Positions 5,506 through 56,021 are shown, counted from the first letter of the stretch. The stretch: DNA of 64,000 bases from an uncultured Chloroflexia bacterium (GCA_963789905.1 CAWBMK010000005.1:14387-78386); one strand, 5' to 3'. Notes: a model not told the origin generated them from the sequence alone. Translations and numbers: made by a program.

Positions 5506-7194
5506 GTGAGCGGGCAGGCAGGGGACTGGGATGCGCGCCGCAGTCGGTGGGAGCGCGAGCGTCTCGGGCCGGCTCGAGACCGCGCTCCGGAGCGACGTCT
5601 CCGCTTCTCGACGATCAGCGATGTCGAGATCCGCGGCCTCTATGGGCCGTGGGACCTGAGCGACCGGGATATCGGGACGACCATCGGCCTGCCCGGCGAG
5701 CCGCCCTTCACACGGGGCGTCCATCCGACCGGCTATCGGAGTCGCCTGTGGACGATGCGGATGTTCGCCGGCTTCGGCTCTGCCGAGGACACGAACGCTC
5801 GCTTCCGCCAGCTCCTCGAGGCCGGACAGACCGGCCTGTCCATCGCCTACGACATGCCGACGCTGTACGGCTACGACACGGACGATCCTGAGGCGGCCGG
5901 CGAGTTCGGGACCTGCGGCGTGGCGGTCAGCAGCCTCGCCGACATGGAGGTCCTTCTTGACGGCCTGCCGCTTGACCGGATCAGCACCTCGATGACGATC
6001 AATTCGCCGGCCGCTCCGATCTGGGCGATGTACATCGTGGCGGCCGAGAAGCGAGGCGTCCCGCGGTCGGCCCTCGAGGGCACGACCCAGAACGACATCC
6101 TCAAGGAGTTCATCGCCCAGAAGGAGTACCTCTTCCCGCCGGCGCCGTCGATGCGACTGGTGACCGATACGATCGAGTTCGGGACGCGCGAGCTGCCCCG
6201 GTGGAACACGATCAGCATCTCCGGCTATCACATCCGTGAGGCCGGCAGTACCGCGGTCCAGGAGCTGGCTTTCACGATCGCCGACGGAATGGCCTACGTC
6301 GAGGCGGCAATCGCCCGGGGCATGCGGATCGACGACTTCGCGCCCCGTCTGTCGTTCTTCTTCAACGCCCACAACGAGTTCTTCGAGGAGATCGCCAAAT
6401 ATCGAGCCGGCCGGCGGATCTGGCATCGATTGATGACCGAACGCTACGGTGCCGAGAACGAGCGGAGCGCCTGGCTGCGTTTCCACACCCAGACCGCCGG
6501 TGTCTCGCTCACCGCCCAGCAGCCGCTCAACAATCTCACCCGGGTCGCCGTTCAGGCCCTGGCAGCCGTCCTGGGAGGGACGCAGTCGCTCCACACCAAT
6601 TCGTACGACGAGGCCTGGGCCGTCCCGACGGCCGAGGCTGCCCTGTTGGCTCTCCGCCAGCAGCAGATCCTGGCCGAGGAAACCGGCGTCGTGTCGACCG
6701 TCGATCCGCTCGGTGGTTCATGGTTCCTCGAGGCGTTGACGGACGAGACCGAAGCTGCGGCTTGGCGATACATCGACGAGATCGATGCCTTGGGCGGGAT
6801 GGTCGCCGCCGTTGAGGCCGGGTTCCCCCAGCGTGAGATCGCCGATGCGGCATATCGCTTCCAGCGTGAGATCGATGAGGGCGAGCGGACGATCGTGGGC
6901 GTGAACCGCTATGCCGACCCGAACGAAGTTCTGGAGATCCCGGTTCTCCAGGTCTCCGAATCGTCGCTGCAGGCGCACCTCGAGCGGCTCACTCGTACGC
7001 GGTTGAGCCGTGACGGTGAAGCGGTAGCGGCGGCCCTGGTCGGCCTTCGTGAGGCGGCTCGTCGGCCGGGCACGAGCGAAACGAATCTCATGCCGCACTT
7101 CATCCGTTGTGCCCAGGCGTACGCGACCCTTGGCGAGCAGTGCGCCGTCCTGCGCGAGGTCTTTGGCGAGTATCGCGAGCCGGTCGCCGTCTGA
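5506..7194 (+). CDS. methylmalonyl-CoA mutase family large (substrate-binding) subunit, isobutyryl-CoA-mutase-like, no B12 domain
   Basis: [66 protein letters not shown] matches the MCM/ICM TIM-barrel core; Phe where MCM has Tyr89; about 563 aa from the GTG at 5506; no C-terminal cobalamin domain. Confidence 0.85.
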
Positions 7195-7364
7195 TCAGGT
7201 GCACGTCCGCAGCGCGGGAGTGCTTATCGTCCGTCGCGGTCGTCGCACCAGGCCCTGATGATTGGTCTCCCCGAACCAGCGGTCGACGTCGGGTGCCTTC
7301 GCGGCAGACTTCCTTCCGCCTATGCTCACAGCGCGATGGTGCCACGCCGTGTCGAGCCTCAGCG

Positions 7365-7811
7365 GTGAACGACCTGGAGATCAGGGGCTGGGCGACAGAG
7401 GCGGACGCGCTGGCCGACTTCCTCGCCGAAGCCAACCTCTGCCGCATCGGCACCGTCGACGAGGCAGGTGACCCGCACGTCGTACCGACCTGGTTCTGGT
7501 GGGACGGCTCGCGGTTCTGGCTCGGGGTCGATGCCGGCGATCACAAGGTGGCCAATGTCCGACGCCATGGCAGGGCGGCCATCGAGGTCGACGGCGATCT
7601 TCGCCGGAAGCGCGGCCTCCTGGCGGTCGGCTCCGCTCTCGTCGTCGACGGCTACGAGGGTCGCGAGGAGTACGTCCGGATCACGATCGAGCAGGTCCGT
7701 CGTTATCGGCCGGACCAGCCGACCCGCGAGACCGCCGAGCGGATGGCGACGAGGGGTGAACCTGTCGTCATCGTGGTGACGCCCGAGCGTATCGTGAGCT
7801 GGGGGAGGTAG
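7365..7811 (+). CDS. pyridoxamine 5'-phosphate oxidase family / PPOX-class F420-dependent protein
   Basis: VPTWFWWDGSRFWLG...RRHGRAAIEVDGD pattern of the split-barrel PPOX class; GTG start at 7365; the track ORF 7107.. is over-extended. Confidence 0.65.
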   Translation: MNDLEIRGWATEADALADFLAEANLCRIGTVDEAGDPHVVPTWFWWDGSRFWLGVDAGDHKVANVRRHGRAAIEVDGDLRRKRGLLAVGSALVVDGYEGREEYVRITIEQVRRYRPDQPTRETAERMATRGEPVVIVVTPERIVSWGR

Positions 7812-7842
7812 CCGCCCCGGTCGCGGCTCTACCATCGGGGCG

Positions 7843-8319
7843 ATGGAGGACGGACCCGCCTTTCTCAGCGCCGAGGCCGAGACATGGGCGCCGTTCCTCG
7901 CTCTCGCGGGCCTGACCGACGCTGACCTCGAGCGGTCCATCGAAGCCGCCCACGGTTGGACCGGACGCGACCTGATGGCTCATCTCGTGTTCTGGCAGGA
8001 GGTCGCCGTGGATCTCGCTCGCGACCTGGCTGTCGGCGACGAGAGTCCGTCGGCCGAGCGGGTGTCGGCCCAGTGGGCCGCCAAGCGAGATGCCTGGAAC
8101 GAGGAGATCCTCGAGGAGTGGCGAGCGAAGCCGCTGGCCGAAGTTCGAGCCCGTTTCGATGCGGCCCCATCGGACCTGCGAGCCGCGCTCGCGAGCGCAC
8201 CCGAGGTCCGCTGGTGGGGCAACCCCGAGCACCGCGAGACGCTACTCGAGGAGACGGTCGAGCACTACGCCGATCACATCGACGAGCTGAGCGCCATCGT
8301 GGCGGCGGCCGGGCGTTAG
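7843..8319 (+). CDS. DinB-like / mycothiol-dependent maleylpyruvate-isomerase N-terminal-domain-like four-helix protein
   Basis: 158 aa acidic helical protein with conserved His/Glu spacing (HGWTGRDLMAHLVFWQE ... HYADHIDE); weak family assignment. Confidence 0.5.
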   Translation: MEDGPAFLSAEAETWAPFLALAGLTDADLERSIEAAHGWTGRDLMAHLVFWQEVAVDLARDLAVGDESPSAERVSAQWAAKRDAWNEEILEEWRAKPLAEVRARFDAAPSDLRAALASAPEVRWWGNPEHRETLLEETVEHYADHIDELSAIVAAAGR

Positions 8320-8320
8320 A

Positions 8321-8683
8321 TCAGGCGGCGCCGCTGTCGGCTTTGCCCGTCTCGGCGCCGATCGCCGCCAGCCCGAACTGTGCCTCGAGCTGTTCCATCG
8401 GCCGGAAGCCGACGACACCCATGGGTTGCTTGCCCGGCTGGAAGAAGGCGACGGTCGGGATGCTCATGATGTTGAAGTGGCGAGAAAGGTGTGGGTTGGC
8501 GTCAACGTCGACCTTCACGACATCGACGAGGCCGTCGTACTTCGCGGCCAGCTTCTCCATCTCGGGTGCGACGAGCTTGCACGGACCGCACCAGGCCGCC
8601 CAGAAGTCGACCACGACCGGTCGCTCGTTGTTGACGACCAACTCGTTGAACGTTTCGTCGGTCGCATGCTTGATCTCGGCCAT
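8321..8683 (-). CDS. trxA: thioredoxin
   Basis: WCGPC active site in FWAAWCGPCKLVAPEMEKLAAKY; 121 aa from MAEIKH; the track ORF is over-extended upstream. Confidence 0.85.
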   Translation of the reverse strand: MAEIKHATDETFNELVVNNERPVVVDFWAAWCGPCKLVAPEMEKLAAKYDGLVDVVKVDVDANPHLSRHFNIMSIPTVAFFQPGKQPMGVVGFRPMEQLEAQFGLAAIGAETGKADSGAA

Positions 8684-8703
8684 CGGTCCTGGGTCCCTTT
8701 CCT

Positions 8704-8997
8704 TCAGTCGGCGATCGATCTGATGAGTCGATAGGCCTCGAGGACGCGCGGGTCGGCGAGGCGATAGTAGACGGTCGTGCCGTCCCGGCGGCTCGAGACG
8801 AGCCCGGCCCGTCGGAGGACGGCTAGGTGCTGACTCATGTTCGGCACATGGCATCCGACTCGTGTCGAGAGGTCGCCGACGGAGAGTTCTCCGGCCGAGA
8901 GCAATTCGAGCACGCAGAGGCGCTTCGGATCGGCCAGGGCCCGCCCGACCGCGGCGTACCGCGACCGGTCGATATCGGAGGAGCTCAGATCCAGCAC
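8704..8997 (-). CDS. ArsR/SmtB family transcriptional regulator
   Basis: 97 aa; ALADPKRLCVLELLSAGELSVGDLSTRVGCHVPNMSQHLAVLRRAGLV is a classic ArsR wHTH; immediately upstream of trxA on the same strand. Confidence 0.8.
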   Translation of the reverse strand: MLDLSSSDIDRSRYAAVGRALADPKRLCVLELLSAGELSVGDLSTRVGCHVPNMSQHLAVLRRAGLVSSRRDGTTVYYRLADPRVLEAYRLIRSIAD

Positions 8998-9084
8998 ATC
9001 GATAGTCTCTCACCACTTGCGCAAATACGCAAGTGCTGCCCCGAAGGGTCCGGGATCGGACTAGGCGCCTGACATACTGCGGGC

Positions 9085-10095
9085 GTGCCCAGAGACGTTC
9101 CGATCAGCAGGATCCGTCGGGCCCGAGATTCGCTTCGCGGTCGTGTCCATCGGACCCCGATGCTGTCGTCGGCTACGGCCGCCCGGACGATCGCAGCGAC
9201 GACCGGCCGGCAGATCGCCGATGGCCGGCTCTACCTGAAAGCGGAGCATCTTCAGCGGACCGGTTCGTTCAAACCGCGGGGTTTGATGCTCCGGTTGATC
9301 TCACTCGCGCCCGGTGATCGGGATCGAGGCGTGATCACGATCTCGGCCGGCAACGCCGGTCAGGGTTATGCGCTCGCCGGTCGCGAGCTGGGTGTCTCGG
9401 TGACCGTGGTGATGCCGAAGAACGCGGTCAAGGCGAAGGTCGCGGCGGTTCGAGGCTATGGAGCGACTGTCGTCCAGCGGGGCTCGCATCCCCTCGAGGC
9501 GATCGCCTACATGAACGAGCTCGCGGCCGACCGTGGACTGACGATCGTCCATCCCTACGACGATCCGGACGTGATCGCCGGCCATGGCTCGGTCGGGCTC
9601 GAGATCGTCGACGACCTGCCCGACGTCGACGTGGTCGTCGTCGGGGTCGGCGGCGGAGGTCTCATCTCGGGGGTGGCTGCCGCGATCCGCCAGGTCCGGC
9701 CAGAGGTCCGCATCTTCGGCGTGGAACCCGAGCTCGCCAACGCCATGCGTCAGGCGCTGGACGCGGGCGAGCCCGTGGGGGTGGTCCCAACGAGCGTGGC
9801 CGACGGACTCGGGGCGCCTCGAGCCGGCGAATGGACCCTCGATCTCGTCCGGCGCTATGTCGAGGACGTGGTCGTCATCGACGACGCCACGATCCTGGGT
9901 GGGCTCCGCTTCGCTCTCGAACGGGACAAGCAGGTTCTCGAGCCGGCTGGAGCGGCGGCGCTGGCGGCGATGATCTACGGCCGGATACCGATCCGAGACG
10001 GCGACCGTGTCTGCTGCATCCTCTCGGGCGGCAACGTCGCGATCGAGCGACTCGGCGAGTACCTTGCCGGAGCCGCCCCGCTCGACATCCCGTGA
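9085..10095 (+). CDS. threonine ammonia-lyase / serine-threonine dehydratase (PLP fold type II, no ACT domain)
   Basis: PLP-lysine motif GSFKPRG and glycine-rich VGVGGGGLISG loop; 336 aa. Confidence 0.8.
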   Translation: MPRDVPISRIRRARDSLRGRVHRTPMLSSATAARTIAATTGRQIADGRLYLKAEHLQRTGSFKPRGLMLRLISLAPGDRDRGVITISAGNAGQGYALAGRELGVSVTVVMPKNAVKAKVAAVRGYGATVVQRGSHPLEAIAYMNELAADRGLTIVHPYDDPDVIAGHGSVGLEIVDDLPDVDVVVVGVGGGGLISGVAAAIRQVRPEVRIFGVEPELANAMRQALDAGEPVGVVPTSVADGLGAPRAGEWTLDLVRRYVEDVVVIDDATILGGLRFALERDKQVLEPAGAAALAAMIYGRIPIRDGDRVCCILSGGNVAIERLGEYLAGAAPLDIP

Positions 10096-11138
10096 CGACC
10101 TCGAGCGCCGTCCCCGATCTGCCCAGCGCACGCAACCTCGTTCGAATCAGCCTGGACCTGGGCACCGAGGCCGCCCGCCGGCTGCGCGGAGCCTCGATCT
10201 ACGTCGCGATGATCTCGCTGGGCCTGATCGGTCCCGTCGTGGTGGCCTTCATCGTGTTCATGGCGGCCAATCCCGATTACTTCCTGCTGGATGTATTCGC
10301 GGACCCATACGCCGATCCGAGGGCCTTTCCCTACGATCCACAGGTCGCGATCGCGGGTCTATGGCTCTCACTCGGGATCCTGGTGGCCGTGGCCGGACTG
10401 ATCGCGATGGCGGTCGAGAGTCAGGCGATGGCCGCGACGATCCTGGCAGGTGTCGCTCTCGGTCGACCCGTGTCGACGCACGAGGCGCTCCGCCGCTCGC
10501 GACAGGTGTTCTGGCGTCTGGTCGGCTATGCGCTCCTGACGGAGATCCCGATCTCGATCGCGAGCCAGCTCCTGGCGACGATCCTGTTCGTAATCATCGG
10601 CGAGGCGTACGAGACCGTCTCCCTGGTCACGACCGCGTTCGCGGCCCTCCTTGGCCTGCCATTCGTGTACGGCGTCACCTCGATCGTGCTGGGCGACGTC
10701 GGCGTCGTCGAAGCTGCCCGTCGCTCGATCAAGCTGGCGCGTGCGCGATGGCGGCTGGCCATCGTCATCAGCCTCGTCGGGGCCGTGGCCTGGTACATCG
10801 CGACCTTCGCCTACCTCGGGGCGATCGGCATCGTGACGACGCTCGGTGCTCCACTCGGTATCGGAATCGACAACGGTCCCCTCGCGCTGCTCGCGCTTCT
10901 CGGGCTGGCTCTCGCCCTGTCGGCCGCCTTTGGGTCGCTCCTCTTGACTGTGACCGCGATCGTCGTCGCGCCGCAGGTCATCGCCTTCCTCGGCTTGACC
11001 CATTACTCCGGCGGCGTCGATCGCGCCCGCGACGAGACCGTACTGCGACCGGCGGTCCGCTACATGACGCTGCCGATGGCGATCGCCATCGTGGCCGCCG
11101 TGCTCTGCTCCATCGCTGCCATGGTCTCCGCTTCTTGA
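10092..11138 (+). CDS. polytopic membrane protein, function unknown
   Basis: About 348 aa with six or seven hydrophobic helices; GTG start overlaps the dehydratase stop; the track ORF 9831.. is over-extended. Confidence 0.55.
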   Translation: MTTSSAVPDLPSARNLVRISLDLGTEAARRLRGASIYVAMISLGLIGPVVVAFIVFMAANPDYFLLDVFADPYADPRAFPYDPQVAIAGLWLSLGILVAVAGLIAMAVESQAMAATILAGVALGRPVSTHEALRRSRQVFWRLVGYALLTEIPISIASQLLATILFVIIGEAYETVSLVTTAFAALLGLPFVYGVTSIVLGDVGVVEAARRSIKLARARWRLAIVISLVGAVAWYIATFAYLGAIGIVTTLGAPLGIGIDNGPLALLALLGLALALSAAFGSLLLTVTAIVVAPQVIAFLGLTHYSGGVDRARDETVLRPAVRYMTLPMAIAIVAAVLCSIAAMVSAS

Positions 11139-11181
11139 GAACAGGTCGTCCGGGCCTCAGTCCGGGGCCTCAGTCCGGGCC

Positions 11182-11595
11182 TCAATCGAGGCCGAGCTCG
11201 GTCAGACGGTCCTCGCCGATGCCGAGGTGGTGCGCGAGCTCATGGATGACCGTCAGGCGGACCTCCTCCTCGAGGTCGAGCGGATCTGGAAAGTCTTCCT
11301 CGAGCGGTAGCCGAAAGACGGTGATCTTGTTCGGCGCGGCTGACCAGTCGGCGCCGTATTCCGTGCGTGGCACGCCCTCGTAGAGGCCGTACAGCACCTC
11401 GTCCCGGCCGAGCTCGTTCTCGGCCAGCTGGGCAGGGGAGGGCTCGTCGGCGATGACGACGGCGACCTCGGCGAGGGCCTCGCGAAACGGAGACGGTATG
11501 CCCGCCAGCGCTCGCTCGACGAGGGCCTCGAAATCCTCCGGACGGAGGTCCACCGAACGACCAATCCTGCGCGATCCACGACGGCGCTTGGGCAT
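11182..11595 (-). CDS. metallopeptidase family protein (zinicin-like, DUF1025-type)
   Basis: 137 aa with C-terminal HELAHHLG (HExxH) zinc motif. Confidence 0.6.
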   Translation of the reverse strand: MPKRRRGSRRIGRSVDLRPEDFEALVERALAGIPSPFREALAEVAVVIADEPSPAQLAENELGRDEVLYGLYEGVPRTEYGADWSAAPNKITVFRLPLEEDFPDPLDLEEEVRLTVIHELAHHLGIGEDRLTELGLD

Positions 11596-11617
11596 CGGCT
11601 CCGTATGCTAGCCCCCG

Positions 11618-12544
11618 ATGGACGCCTCCCACCTCGACCTCGACCTCGCCGTCGTCCCACCGCCGGACCCGCGAGCCTCTCCGGAGTCGTTTGTCGTCGT
11701 CGTCGACGCGGTCGAACGGATCGCCTTTCATGACTGGGGGGGCCCATCCACCATTGGGCCGCCGGTGCTTCTCATCCATGGCCTCGCGGGCACGGCCGCC
11801 ATCTGGGCGCCCGTCGCCCGCCGGTTGTCGTCGGTCAGGCGGGTCGTCGCCATGGACCTCCGTGGCCACGGGATCTCCGACGCCCCAACGCACGGCTACG
11901 ATCCCGACACGCTCGCCGAGGATTCGGTGGCCGTGGCCGATGGATCCGGGCTGGTATCGCAGGGGCCCATCGTCGTCGCTGGTCATGGCTTCGGTGCGAT
12001 CGTTGCGGCGTGGACCGCCGCGGTCCTGGGCGACGCCTGCGCCGGCCTCGTGCTCGTCGACGGCGGCTGGGAGGAGGCTGAGGAGGCGACCGGAACGGAC
12101 ACCGAAGAGTTCCTGCGCACGATCGCCGAGCCGCCGGAGGTCCTCCGCTCGATGTCGGCGTGGCTGGCCGACCGACGGGCGTTCGATCCGACGACCTGGG
12201 ACGCGGACCAGGAGGCGGCGGCCCGTGAGGCGGTCGTCGAGCTGCCCGTTGGACGCCTCGCGCCGGCCACCCGTCCTCACGTGATGGAGGCGTGCGTGCG
12301 GGCGATGTTCGCGTACCGCCCGACCGTCGTCCTGCCCTCGGTCGAAGCGCCCATCGCCGCCCTCACGGCGGCCGACGACGATGGCGTTCATGGCAGGACG
12401 CTCGTGGCGACACAGGATGCCCTCATCGAGGCCGAGCGGCCACCGATCCGCGTCGCTCGATTTCCCGGCGACGCTCACAACCTCATGCGATATCGACCGA
12501 CCGAGGTCGCGGCTGCGATCCTGGCCGTCGAGCGGATCGGGTGA
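11618..12544 (+). CDS. alpha/beta hydrolase
   Basis: HGLAG oxyanion region, GHGFG nucleophile elbow, C-terminal DAHN; 308 aa. Confidence 0.75.
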
Positions 12545-12566
12545 CCGCGGGTACCATGCGGCGACC

Positions 12567-13241
12567 ATGACGACGCCCACGCCCCTGTCGGACAGCGTCC
12601 GCGAGATCGTCGAGGCGATCGAAAGCGACCACGAGCTGCCGATCGAAGGAACGCGCAGCCTCGGTGGCGCGAGCAACGGCCGCGTCGAGTCGGCCGTGCG
12701 CGAAATCCTCATCGAGGTCGGCGAGGATCCAGACCGACAGGGCTTGACGGGCACCCCCGAGAGGATCCTGCGGATGTATGCGGAGCTCACCGCGGGCTAC
12801 CACGTCGACCCCGACCGGCTCCTTGCCGGCGCCCTCTTCGACGTCGCCTACTCCGAGATGGTCGTCGTCAAGGACATCCCCTTCTATTCGCTCTGCGAGC
12901 ACCATCTCCTGCCGTTCTTCGGCACTGCCGCCGTCGCCTACATCCCGAGCGGTCGGGTAGTGGGTCTCTCGAAGATCCCCCGTATCGTCGAGATGTACGC
13001 TCGCCGACTCCAGCTACAGGAGCGGATGACCCAGCAGATCGCCGACCTGCTCATGGAGCGGCTGGAGCCGCAAGGCGTCGGGGTGGTCCTCGAGGCGACC
13101 CACCTGTGCGCGGTCATGCGCGGCGTGGAGAAGCCGGGCACGATCATGACGACCTCGGCCGTCCTCGGGCTGTTCCGCAGCCGCGACCGCACCCGGGCCG
13201 AGTTCCTCGCCCACCTGGAACGTCCCGCCCCGCGCCGGTAG
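12567..13241 (+). CDS. folE: GTP cyclohydrolase I
   Basis: [30 protein letters not shown] (Zn-binding CEHH) and [13 protein letters not shown] motifs; 224 aa from the ATG at 12567. Confidence 0.9.
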
Positions 13242-13254
13242 GCCGGCTGGCGAC

Positions 13255-14352
13255 CTAGGTATCCTCGCGGATGGCGATCCGATTGGAGCCGCCGGTCAGC
13301 TCCACGTCGAAGACGTCCGCGGCCTGATCCGCGTCTGCCGATGACAGCGCGGTCTGGCCACCAGTGCGGCCGAGCTTCTGTCGGTCGAACTCGACCGAGC
13401 TCGCCCCGCCGGACAGTCGCAGACGGATCGACACGCCGGCCGGCCTCGAGATTCCGATGTCGTTCGCCCCACCCGTAATCCGCACCGGCACGCGGCCCTG
13501 CGGCCGCCCGAGGGTCAGCCGGATGTCACCGGCGCCGCCGGTCATCTGGAATGCCGACAGGTTCAGAGCGGCGAGCTTCGCGTCGATCGTGTTGGCGCCG
13601 CCCACCACATCGATCGCCCACGGGATCGCAGCATTTAGGGCGAGATCGGCGTTGCGCTTCTTCCACTCCCAGGGCATGCCCCGGCCCTTGTAGTAGAGAT
13701 AGACCGTGCCCTCGCGCAGACGGACGTGGGGCACCATGCCCGTGAAGCGTCCGATGTACAGCTCCTGGAGATCGTCCACCGAGCCGATCGTCAGGTCGTT
13801 GACGCCGGATCGGACCAAGAGCCGAGCGCTGGTGAGGCCGCCGAGCGGGGCGGCATGCTGGCTTATTGCTCCCTCATCGACCGTCGAGGGAGACTCGTCG
13901 CGGAGCGAGGTCGCCTCCGAACGGGTGATCTCGGCCATCCTGGTCAGGAAGTCGTCGATGAGGGCAAGCTGCTCGGGCGTGTAATAGTCGACCATCGATC
14001 CGCTCGCCTCGTCGAGACGGTCGAGGGTCATCTCGATGGCCGCGATCTTCTCGGGCACGACCTCGACCACCACCCGGCGACGATCGGCGGGGTCGGGAAT
14101 CCGCCGGACGTAGCCGGCCTGCTCGAGGCGATCGACGACGCGAGTGACGGCCCCGGTCGTCAGGCCGGTCAGCTCGGAGAGCCTGCCGGCCGTTGTGGAT
14201 CCCAGGTCGATGAGGCTTTCGAGGGCCTCGATATCGGACTCCGAGAGTCCGAACCGGACGGCGACCGTCTGGCCGAACAACGAGCCCTGGATGCTGACGC
14301 GCCGCAGCGAACGAACCACGGACTTGATCGATCCTCGTTCGTTTGTGGTCAT
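13255..14352 (-). CDS. MarR-family wHTH regulator fused to a C-terminal beta-rich (LiaF/toast-rack-like) domain
   Basis: The N-terminal 150 aa are MarR-like (GLSESDIEALESLIDLGSTTAGRLSELTGLTTGAVTRVVDRLEQAGYVRR); the C-terminal 200 aa consist of repeated G-G-x-x-D/I beta-strand units; divergent from the ABC exporter at 14472. Confidence 0.65.
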   Translation of the reverse strand: MTTNERGSIKSVVRSLRRVSIQGSLFGQTVAVRFGLSESDIEALESLIDLGSTTAGRLSELTGLTTGAVTRVVDRLEQAGYVRRIPDPADRRRVVVEVVPEKIAAIEMTLDRLDEASGSMVDYYTPEQLALIDDFLTRMAEITRSEATSLRDESPSTVDEGAISQHAAPLGGLTSARLLVRSGVNDLTIGSVDDLQELYIGRFTGMVPHVRLREGTVYLYYKGRGMPWEWKKRNADLALNAAIPWAIDVVGGANTIDAKLAALNLSAFQMTGGAGDIRLTLGRPQGRVPVRITGGANDIGISRPAGVSIRLRLSGGASSVEFDRQKLGRTGGQTALSSADADQAADVFDVELTGGSNRIAIREDT

Positions 14353-14471
14353 GGCTTGACACCGCTCCATCTACCGGGCACTATCTGCGCCGTGCAGATA
14401 ATGCCCCATGTTGCTGACCAGTGCAACCAGCGCTGTCGACAGGGTAGTTCACCGCACGAAGGAGCAGGTCG

Positions 14472-15449
<978 letters not shown>

Positions 15450-15514
15450 CAGCCCACCCCTCGGACCCAATGACGCATCTGTCGACAGATCTCTTCTGAA
15501 AGGAGAACCCTCCC

Positions 15515-16276
15515 ATGATCGCCGCCGCCCGCGACACCTGGCTCATCTTCGAGCGGTCGCTCTATCTCACGATCAAGCAGCCCGTGTGGGTCGTCCTGGG
15601 GATCATCCAGCCGATCCTGTTCCTTGTCCTCTTCGGTCCGCTCCTCGAGGGAGCGACGGTCGCCGCCGGCGCCGAAACGAACGCCTACAACTGGTTCCTG
15701 CCCGGGTTGCTCATCCAGGTCGCCCTGTTTGGCGCCTTCTTCGTCGGCTTCGGGCTCATCGCCGAGGTGCGCTACGGCGTCGTCGAGCGGATGCGCGTGA
15801 CACCGATGAGCCGCGTCTCGATGCTCCTTGGCCGCTCGCTTCGCGACATCGTCATCCTCGAGGGTCAGGCGCTCATCATGATCTTGCTGGCCATCCCGTT
15901 CGGCCTCGAGGTCGATCCGGCCGGGGTCGTCGGGACGCTCGGCCTGATTGCCCTCCTCGGGTTGGCTATGGCGCCGCTGTCGTACTCGCTTGCGCTCATC
16001 CTCCGAAGCGAGGATGCGCTCGCCCCGCTGCTCAACGGGACGGTCGTCCCGTTGCTCTTGCTCTCGGGGATCCTCCTGCCGATGGCGCTGGCACCCGAAT
16101 GGCTCCAGACCCTGTCCGACATCAACCCGTTGACCCACACGGTGAATGCCGCTCGGGCCCTCTTCAACGGCGAATTCGGCAATCCTGAGGTCGCCATCGG
16201 CGTCGCCGTGACCGCCATCGCCGCTGTGCTGGCGGTGCTCGCCGGGGCGCGCTCGTTCAGTCGGGCGGCCGCCTGA
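15515..16276 (+). CDS. ABC-2 type transporter permease (DrrB-like)
   Basis: 253 aa, six TM helices; follows the ATPase. Confidence 0.8.
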
Positions 16277-16316
16277 GAGCCCGCACCTCGCGAGGCGGCT
16301 GCGCTACGATCGGTCG

Positions 16317-16721
16317 GTGAGCGATCGGCCGATCAGGGTCCTTATCGCCAAGCCCGGCCTCGATGGGCACGACCGCGGGGCCAAGGTGCTCGCGCGTGGG
16401 CTGCGCGACGAGGGCTTCGAGGTCGTCTACACGGGTCTCCGTCAGACGCCCGAGATGGTCGTGACGGCCGCCCTCCAGGAGGACGTCGATGTCGTCGGGC
16501 TCTCGATCCTGTCGGGAGCCCACATGACCCTGCTGCCGCGGATCTGTCTCCTCATGAAGGAGCGTGGTCTCGACGACGTGCTCGTCACGGCCGGCGGCAT
16601 CATCCCCGACGACGACGTCGCATCGCTTCGCGAGGCCGGCGTCGCTGCCGTGTTCGGGCCGGGCACGACGATCCGTGAGGTGGGGGACTTCTTCCGGGCC
16701 AACGTCCGGCCGCGCGAATAG
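16317..16721 (+). CDS. cobalamin-binding small subunit of acyl-CoA mutase (MCM C-terminal-domain-like)
   Basis: 134 aa; B12-binding DxHxxG motif ([11 protein letters not shown]) and Rossmann-like layout. Confidence 0.85.
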
Positions 16722-16722
16722 C

Positions 16723-17733
16723 GTGGCCGATCCGGCGGCGAGGGCCGCCGACCTAGCCACGCGAGCCCTGGCCGGCGATCGGCGCGCACTCGCGCGACTC
16801 CTGACCGCCATCGAGAATCGGACACCGATCGCCGAACATGCCATGCGTCGCCTCTATTCGAAGGCCGGCCGAGCTCATGTCGTGGGGATGACCGGGCCGC
16901 CCGGAGCCGGCAAGAGCACGCTCGTGTCAGCACTCATCGCCGAGCTCAGGCGGGCGGGCCGACCGGTCGGCGTCATCGCCGTCGATCCATCGTCGCCTAT
17001 CACGGGCGGCGCCCTCCTGGGTGATCGGGTGAGGATGCAGGACTACGCGTCAGACGAAGGGGTGTTCATCCGCTCGATGGCGTCGCGCGGCCACGCCGGC
17101 GGCCTCGCCCCGACGACGGGCGCCGCGGCTGCCGTCCTCGACGCGGTGGGTTTCGAGGTCGTCTTCGTCGAGACGGTCGGGACCGGCCAATCCGAGGTCG
17201 AGGTGGCGGCGATGGCCGACACGACGATCGTCCTCGAGGCACCCGAGTCCGGAGACGAGATCCAGGCCATCAAGGCCGGCCTGCTCGAGGTCGCTGATCT
17301 CGTCGTCGTCAACAAGGGCGATCGACCTGGCGCCCAGCGGACCGTGAGCCAGCTGCGGGCGATGCTGACGGCCGCGGCCAAGGTCGGTGCGGCGGCTGTC
17401 GCCGACGACCGTCCTCGCCCGAAGCGACCCGACGTGCTGATGACCACGGCGATCGACGGGACCGGCGTCCCCGAGCTGATCGCCGCGCTCGATGCGCGTG
17501 TCTCGATTGCCGCTCACGGCGAGGTGGATGGCACGAGGGCTCGCGCGCGCCTCGCCCGGGCCGAGGCCCAGGTCTGGGCGATCGTCGATCAGCGGCTGCG
17601 GGATCGTCTCCGTCAGCCGGATCGAGCGACCGACGCCGGGCGCATCCTCGCCGCCGTGGCCGGTCACGACCTGGACCCGTATGCTGCGGCCGATCGCCTC
17701 ATCGATGCGCTCGAGCTGCGGGAGGATGCGTGA
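16723..17733 (+). CDS. meaB: methylmalonyl-CoA mutase-associated GTPase (MeaB/ArgK family G-protein chaperone)
   Basis: P-loop GMTGPPGAGKST, switch region VIAVDPSSPITGGALLGDRVRM, and VVVNKGD (NKxD); GTG start two nucleotides after the small-subunit stop. Confidence 0.85.
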   Translation: MADPAARAADLATRALAGDRRALARLLTAIENRTPIAEHAMRRLYSKAGRAHVVGMTGPPGAGKSTLVSALIAELRRAGRPVGVIAVDPSSPITGGALLGDRVRMQDYASDEGVFIRSMASRGHAGGLAPTTGAAAAVLDAVGFEVVFVETVGTGQSEVEVAAMADTTIVLEAPESGDEIQAIKAGLLEVADLVVVNKGDRPGAQRTVSQLRAMLTAAAKVGAAAVADDRPRPKRPDVLMTTAIDGTGVPELIAALDARVSIAAHGEVDGTRARARLARAEAQVWAIVDQRLRDRLRQPDRATDAGRILAAVAGHDLDPYAAADRLIDALELREDA

Positions 17734-18623
17734 TGCCGATCAATCGGGTATTCATCGCCGGTGCGGGCCTCATGGGACATGGCATGGCGCAGATCCTGGC
17801 CGCCACGGGCCGCCCGGTGACGCTCTACGAGCCCGATCTCGAGCGGGCAGTGGCGGGTCGAGTCCGAGTTCTTGGCAACCTCGAGCGGTCCGTGTCCAAG
17901 GGTCGCCTGAAGGGATCGGAACGCGACGCCATGCTGCAGCGCATCTCCGTGACGGACGATCCGGCGCAGGTGCGCGGCGCGGACCTTGTTCTCGAGGCCG
18001 TGTTCGAAGACGCCGCCGTGAAGTCCAACCTGTGGGCATCGCTCGATGCGATCGCCAGCGCGCATGCGATCTTCGCGACGAACACGTCCTCGATCTCCAT
18101 CGACCGTCTCGCGGAGGCCGTGTCCGAGCAGCGACGAGCGCGATTCCTCGGCATGCACTTCTTCAGTCCGGTTCCGCTGATGCCTCTCGTCGAGATCATC
18201 CGCGGATCGGCCACCAGCGACGATGTCGCCGCCGCGATCCGGGCGCTGGCGACGGAGCTCGGCAAGGACGTCATCGTCTCGGCTGACCGGCCCGGCTTCA
18301 TCGTCAACAGGATCCTCATGCCGCTCCTCGCCGAAGCGATGCGAACGTACGAAGAGGGGACGGGGACGGCGGAAGACATCGATATCGGAACCAAGATCGG
18401 GCTCAACCACCCGATGGGTCCGCTCGAGCTCGCCGACTTCATCGGTCTCGATGTGGTTCTGGGCATCATGCGCACCCTCCACGAGGGCCTCGGTGCCGAA
18501 CAGTTCCGGCCGCCCAAGGTGTTGGAGGACCTCGTCGCCGAGGGTCACCTCGGGCAGAAGACCGGCCAGGGCTTTCACACATACGCGAGCTCGACGGGGC
18601 CCTCCGCAAGCACCCCGGCGTAG
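17730..18623 (+). CDS. 3-hydroxyacyl-CoA / 3-hydroxybutyryl-CoA dehydrogenase
   Basis: N-terminal NAD fold IAGAGLMGHGMAQ plus the canonical HFFSPVPLMPLVEII and GFIVNRIL motifs; start overlaps the meaB stop by 4 nt. Confidence 0.85.
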   Translation: MMPINRVFIAGAGLMGHGMAQILAATGRPVTLYEPDLERAVAGRVRVLGNLERSVSKGRLKGSERDAMLQRISVTDDPAQVRGADLVLEAVFEDAAVKSNLWASLDAIASAHAIFATNTSSISIDRLAEAVSEQRRARFLGMHFFSPVPLMPLVEIIRGSATSDDVAAAIRALATELGKDVIVSADRPGFIVNRILMPLLAEAMRTYEEGTGTAEDIDIGTKIGLNHPMGPLELADFIGLDVVLGIMRTLHEGLGAEQFRPPKVLEDLVAEGHLGQKTGQGFHTYASSTGPSASTPA

Positions 18624-18635
18624 ACTCCCGACCTG

Positions 18636-19856
18636 ATGCATCCCAACGGCGACGTCTTCATCGTGTCGGCCGCGCGCACGCCGATCGGCAAGTTCGGCGG
18701 TGGCCTTGCATCTGTGCCGGCCGTCGAGCTCGGAGGCGTGGCGATCCGGGCGGCCGTGGACAGATCCGGTCTGCCCCAGGGCACGGCAATCGACGAGGTG
18801 CTGATGGGCCAGGTCCTTCAGGCGGGCGTCGGTCAGGCGTCCGCGCGACGAGCCGGCCTCGCCGCCGGTCTGCCCGATACGACGAGCGCGACGACGATCA
18901 ACCGCGTCTGCGGCTCGGGCCTCAAAGCGATCATGCTCGCCTCGGCATCGATCCGGGCCGGCGATGGCGAGGTCTACGTCGCCGGGGGGATGGAGTCGAT
19001 GAACCAGGCACCGTTCCTCCTCGACAGGGCGCGCTTCGGTTACCGGCTGGGCCACGGCGAGCTGCGCGATGCGACGATCACCGACGGCCTGTGGTGCAGC
19101 GTCGAGGACTGTCACATGGGCACCCATGCGGAACGCGTGGCGATCAAGGAGAGCGTGAGTCGCGACGATCAGGACGCCTTCGCCCTCGAAAGCCATCGGC
19201 GCGCGGTCGCAGCGATCGATGCCGGCCGCTTCGACGATGAGCTCACGCCAGTGACCGTCCGCGGCCCAAAGGGCGATACGACGGTCAGCGTCGATGAGTC
19301 GCCCCGTCGCGATACGTCGAGCGAGGCACTGGCCCGGCTCGCGCCGGTCTTCCCGCTCCCGGCGGGCGAGGACGCCGGCGATGCCGAGGTCGGCACCGTG
19401 ACGGCGGGCAATGCGCCGGGCATCACCGATGGGGCGGCCGCGACGATCGTGGTCAGCGAGCGCGTCGTCGAGGCGAACGCCCTGCGGCCGTTGGCCAGGA
19501 TCGTGGGCTACGCTCAGGCGGAGGTCGCCCCCAAGTGGCTGTTCCTGGCTCCGATCGAGGGTGTCCGCCGCCTCCTGGAGAAGACGGGCTTGTCGATCGG
19601 CGAGTTCGATCTCATCGAGATCAACGAGGCCTTCGCGGCCCAGACCCTCGCCGACGGTCGCGCCCTGGGCTTCGACTGGGCGAAGGTGAACGTCAACGGC
19701 GGCGCCATCGCTCTGGGCCACCCGATCGGAGCATCCGGTGCCCGGATCGTGGCGACCCTGCTCCACGAGCTGCGCCGGCGAGAAGGGCGATACGGTCTGG
19801 CGACGCTGTGTCTCGGCGGCGGCGGGTCGGTCGCCATGGCGTTCGAGCGGGTCTGA
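18636..19856 (+). CDS. acetyl-CoA C-acetyltransferase (thiolase II)
   Basis: Active-site Cys region NRVCGSGLKAI and C-terminal GLATLCLGGGGSVAMAFE thiolase signature. Confidence 0.9.
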   Translation: MHPNGDVFIVSAARTPIGKFGGGLASVPAVELGGVAIRAAVDRSGLPQGTAIDEVLMGQVLQAGVGQASARRAGLAAGLPDTTSATTINRVCGSGLKAIMLASASIRAGDGEVYVAGGMESMNQAPFLLDRARFGYRLGHGELRDATITDGLWCSVEDCHMGTHAERVAIKESVSRDDQDAFALESHRRAVAAIDAGRFDDELTPVTVRGPKGDTTVSVDESPRRDTSSEALARLAPVFPLPAGEDAGDAEVGTVTAGNAPGITDGAAATIVVSERVVEANALRPLARIVGYAQAEVAPKWLFLAPIEGVRRLLEKTGLSIGEFDLIEINEAFAAQTLADGRALGFDWAKVNVNGGAIALGHPIGASGARIVATLLHELRRREGRYGLATLCLGGGGSVAMAFERV

Positions 19857-19910: not shown

Positions 19911-22900
19911 GTGGCTGAGGTTCGATGCCCGTCCTGCGGAGAGGAGAATCCGGAGCGGGCGAAGTTCTGTCTCGAGTGCGGGGCGGCGCTGGGCGCGCCG
20001 GCGGCCGCACCTCGCGACGTGCGCAAGACCGTCACCATCCTCTTCGCCGATATCACCGGCTCGACCGAGTTGGGGGAGCGGCTCGACCCCGAGGCCGTCC
20101 GCACTCTGTTGGCCAGGTATTTCACTGCCATGCGGACCGTGATCGAACGACACGGGGGTACCGTCGAGAAGTTCATCGGCGACGCTGTCATGGCGGTGTT
20201 CGGCATCCCCGTTGCCCACGAGGACGACGCGTTGCGGGCCGCCCGCGCGGCTGTCGAAATGGGCGCGGCGCTCGAGCGGCTCGACGTCGAGCTCGGTGCG
20301 CGAATCCAGATCCGCACCGGCATCAACACGGGCCAGATCGTCGCTGGCTCGCCGGGTTCGCGGGAGACCCTGGTCACGGGTGATGCCGTCAATGTCGCCG
20401 CCCGCCTCGAACAGGCCGCCGGGCCGGACCAGATCCTGGTCGGCGAGACGACGGCACGACTGCTGCGCGACGTAGCCGATCTCGAGCGGCTCGAGCCGCT
20501 CGTCCTCAAGGGGAAGGCCAAGGCGGTGGGGGTGCACCGCCTCCACGGGCTGCGAACGGTGCCGGACGTGGCGCTGCTCCACGCAGAGACGCCGATGATC
20601 GGCCGGCAAGCCGAGCTGGCCGCCCTTCAGGGAGTCTTCGATGGAGTCGTCGCATTGGGCTCACCGCTGCTCGCGGCCGCCATCGGAACTGCCGGTGTCG
20701 GCAAGAGTCGCCTCGTCCGTGAGTTTCTCGCGTCGGTCGCAGAGCGGACCACTATCCTGCGCGGCCGCTGCCTCCCCTATGGCCAAGGCATCACGTTCTG
20801 GCCTATCGCCGAGATCGTGCGGCAGGCCGCAGTGATCGAGGAGGCGGACAGCGCGGAGCGTGCGCGTGCGCGCCTTCGCGAGCTTCTCGACGGCATGCCC
20901 GAGGCGACCCACGTCGGCGCCGCGCTCGAGGGGCTCCTTGGGCTTGGAGCGGGCGGCGGCTCCCCCGTTGAGGAGTTGTCGTGGGCGACGCGCCGTCTCC
21001 TCGAGTGGGTGGCCACCCCTTCGCCGCTGGTCGTCGTCATCGAGGACATCCACTGGGCCGAGCCAGCCTTGCTCGACCTCGTCGACCATATCCTGAGCCA
21101 TGGTCGCGCGCCTATCGTCGTCGTGACGCCATCCCGACCGGATATTCTCGAGACTCACCCGGCGTTCATATCGGGTCCGGACAGAGTCGTCGTCCATCTG
21201 GAGCCCCTCGCCGACGCTGCTGCACGTGAGCTGATCGAACGCCTGTTGCCTGGGCACGGCCACGTGGTCGAGTTGCGGGCTCGGATCGCCGAGGCAGCCG
21301 ATGGCAATCCCCTCTATGTCGAGGAACTTGTCGGGATGCTCGTCGATGGTGGGACCGTTCGACGCATCGATGGTGGCTGGGAGGTCGTCGGGTCGGCCGA
21401 CATCGTCTCGATGCCGCCGACCATCGGTGCCCTGCTTAGCGCGCGTCTCGATGGCCTCGGACCCGAGCGGACCGCAGCGGAGCGCGGTTCGGTCGTCGGC
21501 CGTGTGTTCGAGGCACGGGCGATTGCGCATCTCTCGGCGGATACGGCGCCGTCGGCGCTCTCCGAACAACTCGCCATCCTCGTTCGCAAGGACCTCATCC
21601 GCCTTGATTCGTCCATCATCGAGGAGGTTGCATACCGGTTCCGACACATCCTGATTCGTGATGCCGCCTATGGGTCGCTGGCCAAGGCCGAGCGCGCCCG
21701 CCTGCACGAGAGCCTGGGCACATGGCTTGAGGCGATTTCGGGCGATCGGCTCGCCGAGGTCGAGGAGATCGTTGGCTATCACCTCGAGCAAGCCGCGCTG
21801 TACCAGGGCGAGATTGGCTCGGCCGCCGAGGCACAGCGCTTGGCTCCCCTGGCCGCGCGACGGCTTGCCGCGGCGGCCACCCGAGCGGCCGACCGAGGCG
21901 ACATTCGCGCCGCGGCTAACCTTCTCGAGAGAGCCAGTGCGCTCCTGTCGCCCGACGATCCAGCGCGCGAAGCGATCCTCCTCGAGCTTGCCGTGGCCCT
22001 CGCGAGTTCGAATGACCGAAGCAGAGCCGGCGACATCCTCCGGGGCGTCCTCGATCGCGCAACGGATGCCAAGGACGCCATCACCCGAGCGAACGCGCTC
22101 GTCCAGCTGTGGGGTTTCGGCGACATAGCCAGTGAGGATCAAGCACGCATTCGCACAGGCGCTCGTGAGGCGATCTCGGTGCTCGAGGCTGCAGGCGATG
22201 AGCTGGGCCTTGCGCGAGCCTGGCGGCTGCTGGGCGACGCTCACTGGTTCGCCGGAGAGGCGGCGGCGGCCGAGGCGGCAATAGAGCGTTCGCTTGGCCA
22301 CGCTCGGCGCGCCCGACGCCAGAGCGACATCATCGTGGCCTTCGAGAATCTCAGCGCGATCCTCACCACGGGGCCGACGCCAGTCGACGTCGGGATCTCG
22401 CGCTGCGACGAGATCATGGAGTCGGAGGGTGACGATCGGATGGTTGGCGCGTGGATGGCCCATGCACTCGCGCATCTGCGTGCCAGGCGTGGCGACTTCG
22501 CCGAGGCGCGACGGCTCGCCGCGCTCAACAGGCGTGTGCTCGAGGACAACGGGCAGACGTATGAGCATGCGGTCATGGCCGAGCTCGTCGCCGACGTGGA
22601 GTACCACGCAGGCGACGCCTCGGCGGCCGTCGCGGTGCTGCGAGATGGTCTCGAGACGACGCGGCAACTCGGCAAGGCGAGTGCGGTCCTGGCGGCTCAT
22701 CTTGGCCATGTCGCCTGGCACGCCGGCGAGGTGGCTCTCGCTGAGGAGACCGCCGAGGATGGGATGGCGGCGGGCGGTTGGACCCGGGCGCTCACCGTTG
22801 GGACACTCGGTCGCGTCCGCGCGTCCCAGGGCAGCTACGACGAGGCGGAAGCGCTCGTCCGCGAAGGTCTCGCCTATTGGGAAACGACCGACTACCTGAC

Positions 22901-23066
22901 CTACCACGCCTGGACCCTCGAGGCGCTGGGTGACGTGCTGGCCCTGGCCGGCAGGAACGGTGAGGCGGTCGAGGCTCTCATGGCGGCGGCCGCTCTGCAC
23001 GAGCAAAAGGGGAGCACCGTCGGGGTCGCCAAGGTCCAGGCGGCGATAGCGAGATTAGGCTCCTAA
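19911..23066 (+). CDS. multidomain STAND protein: Zn-ribbon, class III adenylyl/guanylyl cyclase domain, AAA/NB-ARC-like NTPase, TPR/helical repeats; no HTH
   Basis: CPSCGEENPERAKFCLECG Zn-ribbon; cyclase motifs VTILFADITGSTEL and FIGDAVMAVFG; P-loop GTAGVGKSRLV; long Ala/Leu-rich TPR-like C-terminus; GTG start with a GGGAGGG Shine-Dalgarno. Confidence 0.8.
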   Translation: MAEVRCPSCGEENPERAKFCLECGAALGAPAAAPRDVRKTVTILFADITGSTELGERLDPEAVRTLLARYFTAMRTVIERHGGTVEKFIGDAVMAVFGIPVAHEDDALRAARAAVEMGAALERLDVELGARIQIRTGINTGQIVAGSPGSRETLVTGDAVNVAARLEQAAGPDQILVGETTARLLRDVADLERLEPLVLKGKAKAVGVHRLHGLRTVPDVALLHAETPMIGRQAELAALQGVFDGVVALGSPLLAAAIGTAGVGKSRLVREFLASVAERTTILRGRCLPYGQGITFWPIAEIVRQAAVIEEADSAERARARLRELLDGMPEATHVGAALEGLLGLGAGGGSPVEELSWATRRLLEWVATPSPLVVVIEDIHWAEPALLDLVDHILSHGRAPIVVVTPSRPDILETHPAFISGPDRVVVHLEPLADAAARELIERLLPGHGHVVELRARIAEAADGNPLYVEELVGMLVDGGTVRRIDGGWEVVGSADIVSMPPTIGALLSARLDGLGPERTAAERGSVVGRVFEARAIAHLSADTAPSALSEQLAILVRKDLIRLDSSIIEEVAYRFRHILIRDAAYGSLAKAERARLHESLGTWLEAISGDRLAEVEEIVGYHLEQAALYQGEIGSAAEAQRLAPLAARRLAAAATRAADRGDIRAAANLLERASALLSPDDPAREAILLELAVALASSNDRSRAGDILRGVLDRATDAKDAITRANALVQLWGFGDIASEDQARIRTGAREAISVLEAAGDELGLARAWRLLGDAHWFAGEAAAAEAAIERSLGHARRARRQSDIIVAFENLSAILTTGPTPVDVGISRCDEIMESEGDDRMVGAWMAHALAHLRARRGDFAEARRLAALNRRVLEDNGQTYEHAVMAELVADVEYHAGDASAAVAVLRDGLETTRQLGKASAVLAAHLGHVAWHAGEVALAEETAEDGMAAGGWTRALTVGTLGRVRASQGSYDEAEALVREGLAYWETTDYLTYHAWTLEALGDVLALAGRNGEAVEALMAAAALHEQKGSTVGVAKVQAAIARLGS

Positions 23067-30010: not shown

Positions 30011-30034
30011 ACATCGCCGCGTATCATCGCCGGC

Positions 30035-37611: not shown

Positions 37612-37685
37612 GGGCCCGTAGCTCAACGGTAGAGCAAGTGACTCCTGATCAGTGGATGAAGGTTCGGATTCTTCCGGCCTCGCCA
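37612..37685 (+). tRNA. tRNA-like gene, anticodon CCT (Arg), probably degenerate
   Basis: Cloverleaf GGGCCCG/TA/GCTC-AACGGTA-GAGC/A/AGTGA-CTCCTGA-TCAGT/GGAT/GAAGG-TTCGGAT-TCTTC/CGGCCTC-G-CCA; G-G mismatch in the anticodon stem, C-C mismatch in the acceptor stem, G at T-loop position 58; the 5' 31 nt plus about 20 nt upstream are identical to tRNA-Lys at 39225. Confidence 0.4.
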
Positions 37686-55892: not shown

Positions 55893-56021
55893 CGGCCGAT
55901 GACCTCCTGGGTGGGTAGGGCCGGCGGAGGAGGAGGCCGGCCCTTGTCGACCACTCTGGGGCGGCTCCCTGAGGAGGTCATGAGAGTGCGGACCATGCTA
56001 CATTTCGGTTGCCCTTTGGCC

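Follow-up and report, generated by a model that had tools for sequence, protein, structure and literature searches.

Which rearrangement is catalyzed by the cobalamin-dependent acyl-CoA mutase encoded on a 64,000-nt stretch of DNA from an uncultured Chloroflexia bacterium (GCA_963789905.1, CAWBMK010000005.1:14387-78386; hereafter the window, with a base composition of ∼69% G+C), and does its large-subunit gene belong with a four-gene small-subunit cassette lying 9 kb away? An original prediction, made from the sequence alone, had proposed a mutase acting on isobutyryl-CoA or on 2-hydroxyisobutyryl-CoA/3-hydroxybutyryl-CoA rather than a methylmalonyl-CoA mutase (MCM). We consider it likely, judging from sequence comparison, that the locus encodes a two-subunit, adenosylcobalamin (AdoCbl)-dependent isobutyryl-CoA mutase (ICM; IcmA plus IcmB) with its own MeaB chaperone. 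The five predicted genes were all confirmed by a gene map drawn from third-position GC analysis, Pfam, and NCBIfam, with two corrections: the large subunit has 562 rather than 563 aa, and MeaB plausibly starts at 16723. The E-values of these matches lie well outside what chance would produce.

5506-7194, + strand: IcmA-like large (substrate-binding) subunit; GTG start, 562 aa plus stop; Pfam, NCBIfam, and PDB and MAFFT alignments
16317-16721, + strand: IcmB-like small B12-binding subunit; 134 aa; PF02310 and TIGR00640
16723-17733, + strand: MeaB-type G-protein chaperone; GTG start, 336 aa; PF03308, and TIGR00750 above cutoff
17730-18623, + strand: Hbd, NAD-dependent (S)-3-hydroxyacyl/3-hydroxybutyryl-CoA dehydrogenase; GTG start, 297 aa; 3HCDH_N and 3HCDH
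18636-19856, + strand: acetyl-CoA C-acetyltransferase-type thiolase; 406 aa; Thiolase_N/C, and TIGR01930 above cutoff

The large subunit matched only PF01642 (MM_CoA_mutase; 718 bits, E 8e-216) and TIGR00641 (738 bits), and it has no B12-binding domain, as had been predicted. A database protein (P0001) is 100% identical across the same 562 aa starting at 5506, and a longer open reading frame (ORF) from 5329 adds a Pro/Arg/Gly-rich stretch without counterpart among homologues. The catalytic Tyr241-His242 pair (ISGYHI) is conserved. In MCM, Tyr89 and Arg207 (P. shermanii numbering) bind the substrate carboxylate. These two sites, Tyr/Arg in MCM, are cited as specificity determinants of the family (PMC7238569). 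We read both columns, and a third that corresponds to Asp117 of HcmA, the large subunit of the 2-hydroxyisobutyryl-CoA/3-hydroxybutyryl-CoA mutase (HCM/RCM), from HMMER alignments against PDB structures and from a MAFFT alignment that included reference sequences; the ICM and HCM residue numbering was cross-checked on PDB chain sequences. The alignment was ungapped and unambiguous at both specificity sites and gave the following (Tyr89 column; Arg207 column; HcmA Asp column):

Window large subunit: RMF (Phe87); FIAQKEY (Gln205); SIAYD (Ala114)
P. shermanii MCM: RQY; FMVRNTY; SVAFD
HcmA of A. tertiaricarbonis (4R3U), Xanthobacter Py2 Xaut_5021, and the Mycobacterium ELW1 mutase: RQI; Q; S[TV]DFD
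P. megaterium IcmF: RQF; Q; STAFD

The Phe that had been noticed in the RMFAGF motif does fall at the MCM Tyr89 column, and the Tyr/Arg match that would have pointed to MCM was not seen. Because Phe87, Gln205, and Ala114 match IcmF and Streptomyces IcmA, and not the MCM or HCM pairs, the large subunit carries an ICM signature, and it combines this Phe/Gln pair with the ICM architecture of a barrel without a B12 domain and a separate DxHxxG subunit. Nor is the Met before the Phe unusual for an ICM, since the C. metallidurans IcmF crystal chain, with F618 and Q762 at the two specificity columns, also reads RMF (RMFAGEG). F618 and Q762 presumably correspond to Phe598 and Gln742, if the 1113-aa chain owes its 20 additional residues (native length, 1093 aa) to an N-terminal tag; Phe598 and Gln742 are the IcmF residues reportedly given by Jost et al. 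in 2015.

Database names would favor another reading, in which the protein is the organism's split MCM, each subunit having its own gene as in archaea and Bacillus. All source names take the form "methylmalonyl-CoA mutase family" or "N-terminal domain", MeaB was first described as a chaperone of MCM, and the nearest annotated relatives include a true split MCM of Brevibacillus (about 59.5% identity) encoded beside a carboxyltransferase gene and an "mce" with a B12 small-subunit domain. However, Tyr89 and Arg207 are replaced by Phe and Gln, which are invariant across the family, and the score against the NCBIfam MCM equivalog NF006944 (627.5) lies below the cutoff of 876. Linkage to methylmalonyl-CoA epimerase (mce) and propionyl-CoA carboxylase (pcc), as would be looked for in an MCM, was not found within the window. 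It also counts against MCM that few residues contact the acid moiety of the substrate and that simple replacements gave no active enzymes (PMC2847961).

Several genomes, moreover, have an Arg207-type paralogue directly beside the Phe/Gln gene. At five Chloroflexota loci (L036, L045, L054, L073, and L091; four labelled Anaerolineae/Anaerolineales), the Phe/Gln large subunit comes immediately downstream of pccB and an Arg207-type large subunit; the paralogue's Tyr site was read for L054 (motif search and alignment) and L091 (alignment) only. In all five loci this paralogue stands on the pccB side; these loci show that the cell's MCM is a protein other than the Phe/Gln one, and we regard an MCM in the window as extremely unlikely. 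An epimerase-like match between the two large subunits was found in L045 only. A single small subunit follows the tandem large subunits in L054, L073, and L091, with meaB next in L054 and L091; at L036 and L045 none was detected. These loci suggest that two mutases differing in specificity may draw on a single cofactor module. The tandem Arg207-type and Phe/Gln large-subunit loci with a small subunit span:

L054, 7497-12715
L091, 7800-12986
L073, 4793-12074

The other substrate class in the original prediction, that of HCM/RCM, would pass 3-hydroxybutyryl-CoA straight to the co-transcribed Hbd and thiolase. These are exactly the two enzymes needed downstream, the window has neither an acyl-CoA dehydrogenase (ACAD) nor a crotonase, and the DMPTL motif is common to the window protein and HCMs. 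The HCM cluster of Mycobacterium ELW1 also carries both hbd and thiolase (PMC13188929), so that linkage to these genes alone cannot tell ICM from HCM. HcmA (4R3U) was in addition the top-scoring solved structure (548 bits), but because no two-subunit ICM structure was among the PDB matches for comparison, this rank tells little of specificity and is no evidence for HCM function. The residues point the other way: Ile and Asp are kept in all three HCMs examined and in an I/Q/D cluster representative (P0251), whereas the window protein has Phe87 at the Tyr89 column and Ala114 at the Asp117 column, and on these two residues the HCM alternative was rejected. The original prediction had placed Ile and Asp at the HCM equivalents of Tyr89 and Arg207; this holds for the Ile, but HCMs have Gln at the Arg207 column and their Asp lies at the third position. 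In an operon-like arrangement, the ligase gene hcl accompanies hcmAB/rcmAB and the chaperone gene (PMC7176365), and in the HCM clusters at L005 and L006 the 2-hydroxyisobutyrate (2-HIBA)-CoA ligase lies between the small subunit and MeaB. In the window, by contrast, hcl is absent, and no AMP-binding ligase was found in or near 16317-19856 or anywhere else. Finally, operons of relatives hold ACAD and crotonase, which would be superfluous for the HCM route. We therefore consider an HCM very unlikely; the original exclusion of MCM and the ICM-like half of its proposal stand, and the HCM-like half does not.

The signature extends well beyond this one protein. Among the best 120 homologues (identity 78–100%), WTMRMF[AS]GFG, [IV]AQK, and S[IV]A[YF]DMPTLY are kept in 120 of 120. 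The few for which an organism is given come from metagenome-assembled genomes (MAGs) of Chloroflexota, Limnocylindrales, or Thermomicrobiales, save one Candidatus Acidoferrum, and all named homologues are called some form of "methylmalonyl-CoA mutase" (family or N-terminal domain). When the peptide patterns LWTMR[ML]FA and [TL]QNDILKE were scanned over 185,579 species genomes, more than 600 stretches matched, and we inspected the best 80; at every one of these loci with motif-readable sites the main match was Phe/Gln/Ala. The 80 loci include Chloroflexota (Limnocylindria, Anaerolineae, Ktedonobacteria such as the cultured Thermogemmatispora aurantia, Dehalococcoidia, Oscillochloris, and Aggregatilineales), Acidobacteriota (RQF variants), Desulfobacteraceae and other Deltaproteobacteria MAGs, Bdellovibrionales, Ignavibacteria, and archaeal MAGs. 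An RMF/Gln/Ala large subunit with 59% identity to the window protein is also present on a 311-kb plasmid of the cultured Deinococcus sp. KNUC1210 (L002 6343-9647), with meaB 0.7 kb upstream and an ACAD 5.7 kb downstream; a small subunit was not annotated within the fetched stretch.

Across the wider family, 150 representatives of 50%-identity clusters comprised 69 with Tyr/Arg/Ala and 20 with Phe/Gln/Ala, the rest having many other pairs. One Phe/Gln representative (P0344) is a Streptomyces-type IcmA, whose relatives are 566-aa proteins of Streptomyces, Kitasatospora, and Actinacidiphila (RQF/Q/A), several of them named "isobutyryl-CoA mutase chain A" or "large subunit"; the window protein is 51% identical over its full length to another Streptomyces-type IcmA (P0416). 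Some Phe/Gln representatives are 680–913 aa long (P0288, P0300, P0323, and P0381) and may be fusions; the names borne by members of the Phe/Gln clusters gave no useful information. As a separate observation, dozens of the representatives (P0241-P0390) have other specificity pairs, e.g., V/V, I/N, L/G, V/D, and N/S, which points to many candidate acyl-CoA mutase specificities beyond known substrates.

Is the window protein then related by descent to the Streptomyces enzyme? In a neighbor-joining tree (Kimura distances, 200 bootstraps), the window clade clustered with the Deinococcus, Acidobacteriota, Deltaproteobacteria, and archaeal proteins and the Streptomyces IcmA family, apart from MCMs and HCMs, with bootstrap values below 20% at the uniting nodes; three further Phe/Gln representatives (P0288, P0292, and P0300) formed their own cluster outside. 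The topology is compatible with common descent from an ancestor shared with Streptomyces IcmA, but with such bootstrap values this is unproven and convergence is possible. In the trimmed alignment, the window large subunit was 52–54% identical to Streptomyces IcmA, 48% to HcmA, 45% to P. shermanii MCM, and 36% to IcmF. Improbable, in our view, but worth stating, is an ICM lineage independent of Streptomyces IcmA, spanning Chloroflexota, Deinococcus, Acidobacteriota, Desulfobacterota, and archaea, that would have arisen from split MCMs and whose small-subunit-MeaB module would be shared by ICM-type and MCM-type large subunits. The idea of a shared module stems from the Anaerolineae, in which two large subunits stand with one small subunit and one meaB, and from the Limnocylindria, in which the small subunit travels with meaB and not with the large subunit.

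The cofactor side of the enzyme was as predicted, a 134-aa B12 subunit followed by MeaB, a 3-hydroxyacyl-CoA dehydrogenase, and a thiolase, all four matched by profiles. The small subunit has the DxHxxG motif (as DGHDRG), and among solved structures it comes closest to 2yxb, the A. pernix B12 mutase small subunit, and to HcmB (4r3u_C); with 48–59% identity to the ICM, MCM, and HCM partner subunits alike, it does not discriminate among them. The longest meaB ORF begins at 16564, inside the small-subunit gene, and ends at 17733; a plausible start is the GTG at 16723, 1 base past the small-subunit stop codon (16719-16721). With a TIGR00750 score of 326.6 (cutoff 240.75) and matches to MeaB/MMAA homologues in PDB, the product is a MeaB-type chaperone of the dedicated kind associated with ICM, its gene translationally coupled to that of the small subunit. 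The GTG start of hbd in turn overlaps the meaB stop by 4 nt (GTGA). The top NCBIfam models for Hbd are 3-hydroxybutyryl-CoA dehydrogenases, with scores under the equivalog cutoffs, and the thiolase retains its catalytic motifs (Cys nucleophile NRVCGSG, His GHPIGASG, and Cys base LCLGGG). Positions 16317-19856 thus form a tight operon of small subunit, MeaB, Hbd, and thiolase. No cobalamin riboswitch was found before either mutase gene (Rfam, whole window), and promoter and terminator scans around both loci gave nothing informative in this 69% GC sequence. A branched-chain keto-acid dehydrogenase was likewise not found in the rest of the 64-kb window, which also lacks ACAD, crotonase, mce, and pcc.

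The distance between the two mutase genes, which had been noted as a split layout, is real and is conserved synteny in Limnocylindria. In a Limnocylindrales MAG (L013, GCA_035283525.1) the large subunit lies ∼9.8 kb from the small subunit, in the order large subunit, two DUF1801 genes, PNPOx, DinB, thioredoxin, a helix-turn-helix (HTH) gene, PALP, an unknown gene, zincin, hydrolase, GTP cyclohydrolase I, Tad genes, small subunit, and meaB. In L022 and L068 the small subunit is 9.0–9.6 kb downstream of the large one, and L009, L012, L014, and L015 hold parts of the same gene block. The icmA and icmB genes are unlinked in streptomycetes; at icmA of Streptomyces albidoflavus (L105), neither a B12 subunit nor meaB was found within 10 kb. 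Given the conserved synteny and the likewise unlinked icmA of Streptomyces, the layout is no oddity. The genes within the gap of the window (PNPOx, DinB, thioredoxin, an HTH regulator, a PALP Ser/Thr dehydratase, zincin, an alpha/beta hydrolase, GTP cyclohydrolase I, MarR, and an ABC-2 exporter) show no obvious metabolic connection with a mutase.

Homologues of the small subunit in Limnocylindria MAGs (85–95% identity) have meaB next to them wherever the contig continues. What follows meaB varies: hbd and thiolase in the window and L020 (icmB-meaB-hbd-thl), hbd and ACAD in L097 (icmB-meaB-hbd-ACAD), and unrelated genes in L010, L011, L012, L014, L015, L099, L101, and L102. More distant members (57–67% identity) have large and small subunits, often with meaB, usually adjacent, and many of them lie in short-chain beta-oxidation operons. 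Pfam matches gave the order thiolase-Hbd-crotonase-EamA-ACAD-icmA-icmB-ACAD-acyl-CoA synthetase in L087 and thiolase-crotonase-ACAD-icmA-icmB-MeaB-regulator-ACAD-aminotransferase in L080, and the latter order recurs in L071 (tblastn and ORF sizes). A thiolase stands directly upstream of the large subunit in four Chloroflexota loci (two labelled Ktedonobacteria), and in Acidobacteriota loci a crotonase is usually within about 0.4–6 kb. Of 79 loci, 33 had one or more of these genes (thiolase, Hbd, crotonase, or ACAD) within 10 kb, a descriptive count with no matched control set.

If the enzyme is an ICM, the large subunit would fold as a TIM barrel that forms the acyl-CoA site, and the small subunit would hold AdoCbl through the His of DGHDRG (His-on), the two unlinked gene products assembling into one enzyme. 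The Streptomyces enzyme is an alpha2-beta2 complex. MeaB would couple GTP hydrolysis to the gating of AdoCbl loading, removal, and repair; such gating of the cofactor has been described for MeaB/MCM and IcmF (PMC10481361). The predicted reaction converts isobutyryl-CoA to n-butyryl-CoA and back, the thioester carbon moving in a radical 1,2-shift. Isobutyryl-CoA from valine or isobutyrate could thus be converted through butyryl-CoA, crotonyl-CoA, 3-hydroxybutyryl-CoA, and acetoacetyl-CoA to two acetyl-CoA, with an ACAD and a crotonase encoded elsewhere and with Hbd and thiolase finishing the oxidation. The reverse direction, supplying isobutyryl-CoA from acetyl-CoA, would be equally possible chemically. 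Given the translational coupling of the small subunit and MeaB to Hbd and thiolase, feeding into C4 beta-oxidation appears the most likely role.

Several points weigh against this assignment. The substrate, the direction of flux, and the pairing of the unlinked subunits are all things that we infer from sequence, the pairing from co-conservation and synteny alone, and ICM activity across the Chloroflexota/Deinococcus/Acidobacteriota clade is likewise predicted. By identity, split Tyr/Arg MCMs (58–60%; Brevibacillus ∼59.6%, Anaerolineae paralogues 58–59%) are nearer to the window protein than is Streptomyces IcmA, and Phe/Gln could have been gained independently from a split MCM ancestor, i.e., convergently. 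Neither of the two missing beta-oxidation genes, ACAD and crotonase, is in the window, and of 11 informative close relatives only 3 have hbd after meaB. The C4 route that the original prediction had drawn from hbd and thiolase is thus reasonable and is strengthened by the operons of distant members, although in close relatives its linkage is uncommon.

The substrate itself could also differ, as Phe/Gln IcmF enzymes reportedly isomerize isovaleryl-CoA and pivalyl-CoA as well (a finding attributed to Cracan and Banerjee in 2012 and Kitanishi et al. in 2015). The enzyme may therefore be an ICM-like mutase of another apolar acyl-CoA, such as isovaleryl-CoA/pivalyl-CoA or a branched C5 pair, with Phe/Gln signifying "no carboxylate" rather than C4. 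Identity to the characterized type of IcmA is only ∼52%, the deep phylogeny is weakly supported, and the many other residue pairs among the 50%-identity representatives indicate that specificity diversifies easily in this fold. On the other hand, the exact ICM pair is strictly conserved, and the neighborhoods contain a short-chain set (thiolase, Hbd, crotonase, and ACAD) and not leucine-pathway genes such as methylcrotonyl-CoA carboxylase; dedicated pivalyl-CoA mutases reportedly replace the Phe. We think such a substrate doubtful and continue to favor isobutyryl-CoA.

Three genes upstream of the small subunit are of uncertain membership in the cassette, all assigned by Pfam:

13255-14370, - strand: MarR-type regulator
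14472-15449, + strand: DrrA-type ABC ATPase
15515-16276, + strand: ABC-2 permease

The permease stop is separated from the small-subunit gene by 40 nt, and the order MarR-ABC-ABC2-icmB-meaB also occurs in metagenome contigs L099-L101. Downstream, carAB lies ∼3.5–5.3 kb after meaB in L014 and L015 and ∼38 kb after it in the window (55761-60648), and hbd-thiolase with the following ∼36 kb (19857-55760) would therefore be insertions or rearrangements specific to the lineage, within a block whose synteny is otherwise kept. Two large signal-transduction ATPases are encoded here, one of 1,051 aa at 19911-23066 (+), starting 55 nt past the thiolase stop (zinc ribbon, adenylate/guanylate cyclase domain, AAA_16, and TPR), and one of 1,019 aa at 30011-33070 (+; AAA_16, TPR, and LuxR/GerE). 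The only Rfam matches in the window were tRNA genes at 37612-37682 and 39225-39296 (+). Three ORFs with coding-like third-position GC had no Pfam match: 60674-62146 (-; 490 aa), 62147-63754 (-; 535 aa), and ∼10100-11138 (+; ∼340 aa), the last having an equally unannotated syntenic counterpart after the PALP gene in L013. Elsewhere, a Brevibacillus laterosporus plasmid (L003 9640-10482) encodes a 281-aa "methylmalonyl-CoA epimerase" directly after a split MCM large subunit; its N-terminal ∼140 residues match B12 small subunits, with 55% identity to that of the window, and it appears to be a small-subunit-epimerase fusion.

Two-subunit ICMs, MeaB chaperones, and unlinked icmA and icmB genes are all already known, and the locus reveals no new kind of enzyme or mechanism. 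The mislabelling of ICMs as MCMs has also been noted before for IcmF, in work cited in PMC7764203. What our analysis adds is a broad, uncharacterized clade beyond the actinomycetes with the ICM signature and, in this genome, a cofactor module joined in one operon with Hbd and thiolase. In practice the result corrects an annotation, as a large and widespread set of proteins annotated as "methylmalonyl-CoA mutase family" bears the ICM rather than the MCM signature. If the assignment is true, these abundant lineages of soil and fresh water may break down valine and isobutyrate via butyryl-CoA to acetyl-CoA rather than via propionyl-CoA, and metabolic reconstructions and estimates of B12 dependency for these lineages would change.

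Among known systems, the S. cinnamonensis IcmA/IcmB enzyme (Zerbe-Burkhardt 1998 and Ratnatilleke 1999, as cited in PMC2847961) represents the Streptomyces type. The window shares with this type a large subunit of ∼565 aa without a B12 domain, a DxHxxG small subunit of ∼135 aa, Phe/Gln/Ala, and non-adjacent subunit genes (as in L105). It differs in reading RMF where Streptomyces IcmA has RQF, in an identity (52–54%) no closer than that to split MCMs, in its host, a Limnocylindria-like member of the Chloroflexota and not an actinomycete, and in placing its small subunit in an operon with meaB, hbd, and thiolase. IcmF (C. metallidurans, PDB 4XC6; Geobacillus; P. megaterium) combines the same modules, a B12 domain, a MeaB-like G-domain, and a substrate barrel, and shares the Phe/Gln pair, RMF (in the C. 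metallidurans enzyme), and a T-LYG motif after the DxxT segment. Unlike the three window genes, however, it is a single polypeptide of 1,080–1,113 aa, with ∼34–36% identity to the window protein (283 bits versus 548 for HcmA) and with an inserted segment, absent from the window protein, ahead of the Gln site.

HcmAB (A. tertiaricarbonis, 4R3U) resembles the locus in its split architecture and MeaB-like chaperone, in the Gln at the Arg207 column, and in DMPTL, and HCM clusters can also hold hbd and thiolase; it departs from the window in having Ile/Asp instead of Phe/Ala, an hcl ligase and a GntR regulator that the window lacks, and ∼48% identity. The split MCMs of Bacillota, Anaerolineae, and archaea share the subunit architecture and the use of MeaB and have the highest identity among annotated proteins (58–60%), but they are Tyr/Arg enzymes encoded with mce and pccB, whereas the window protein has Phe/Gln and is encoded with neither.

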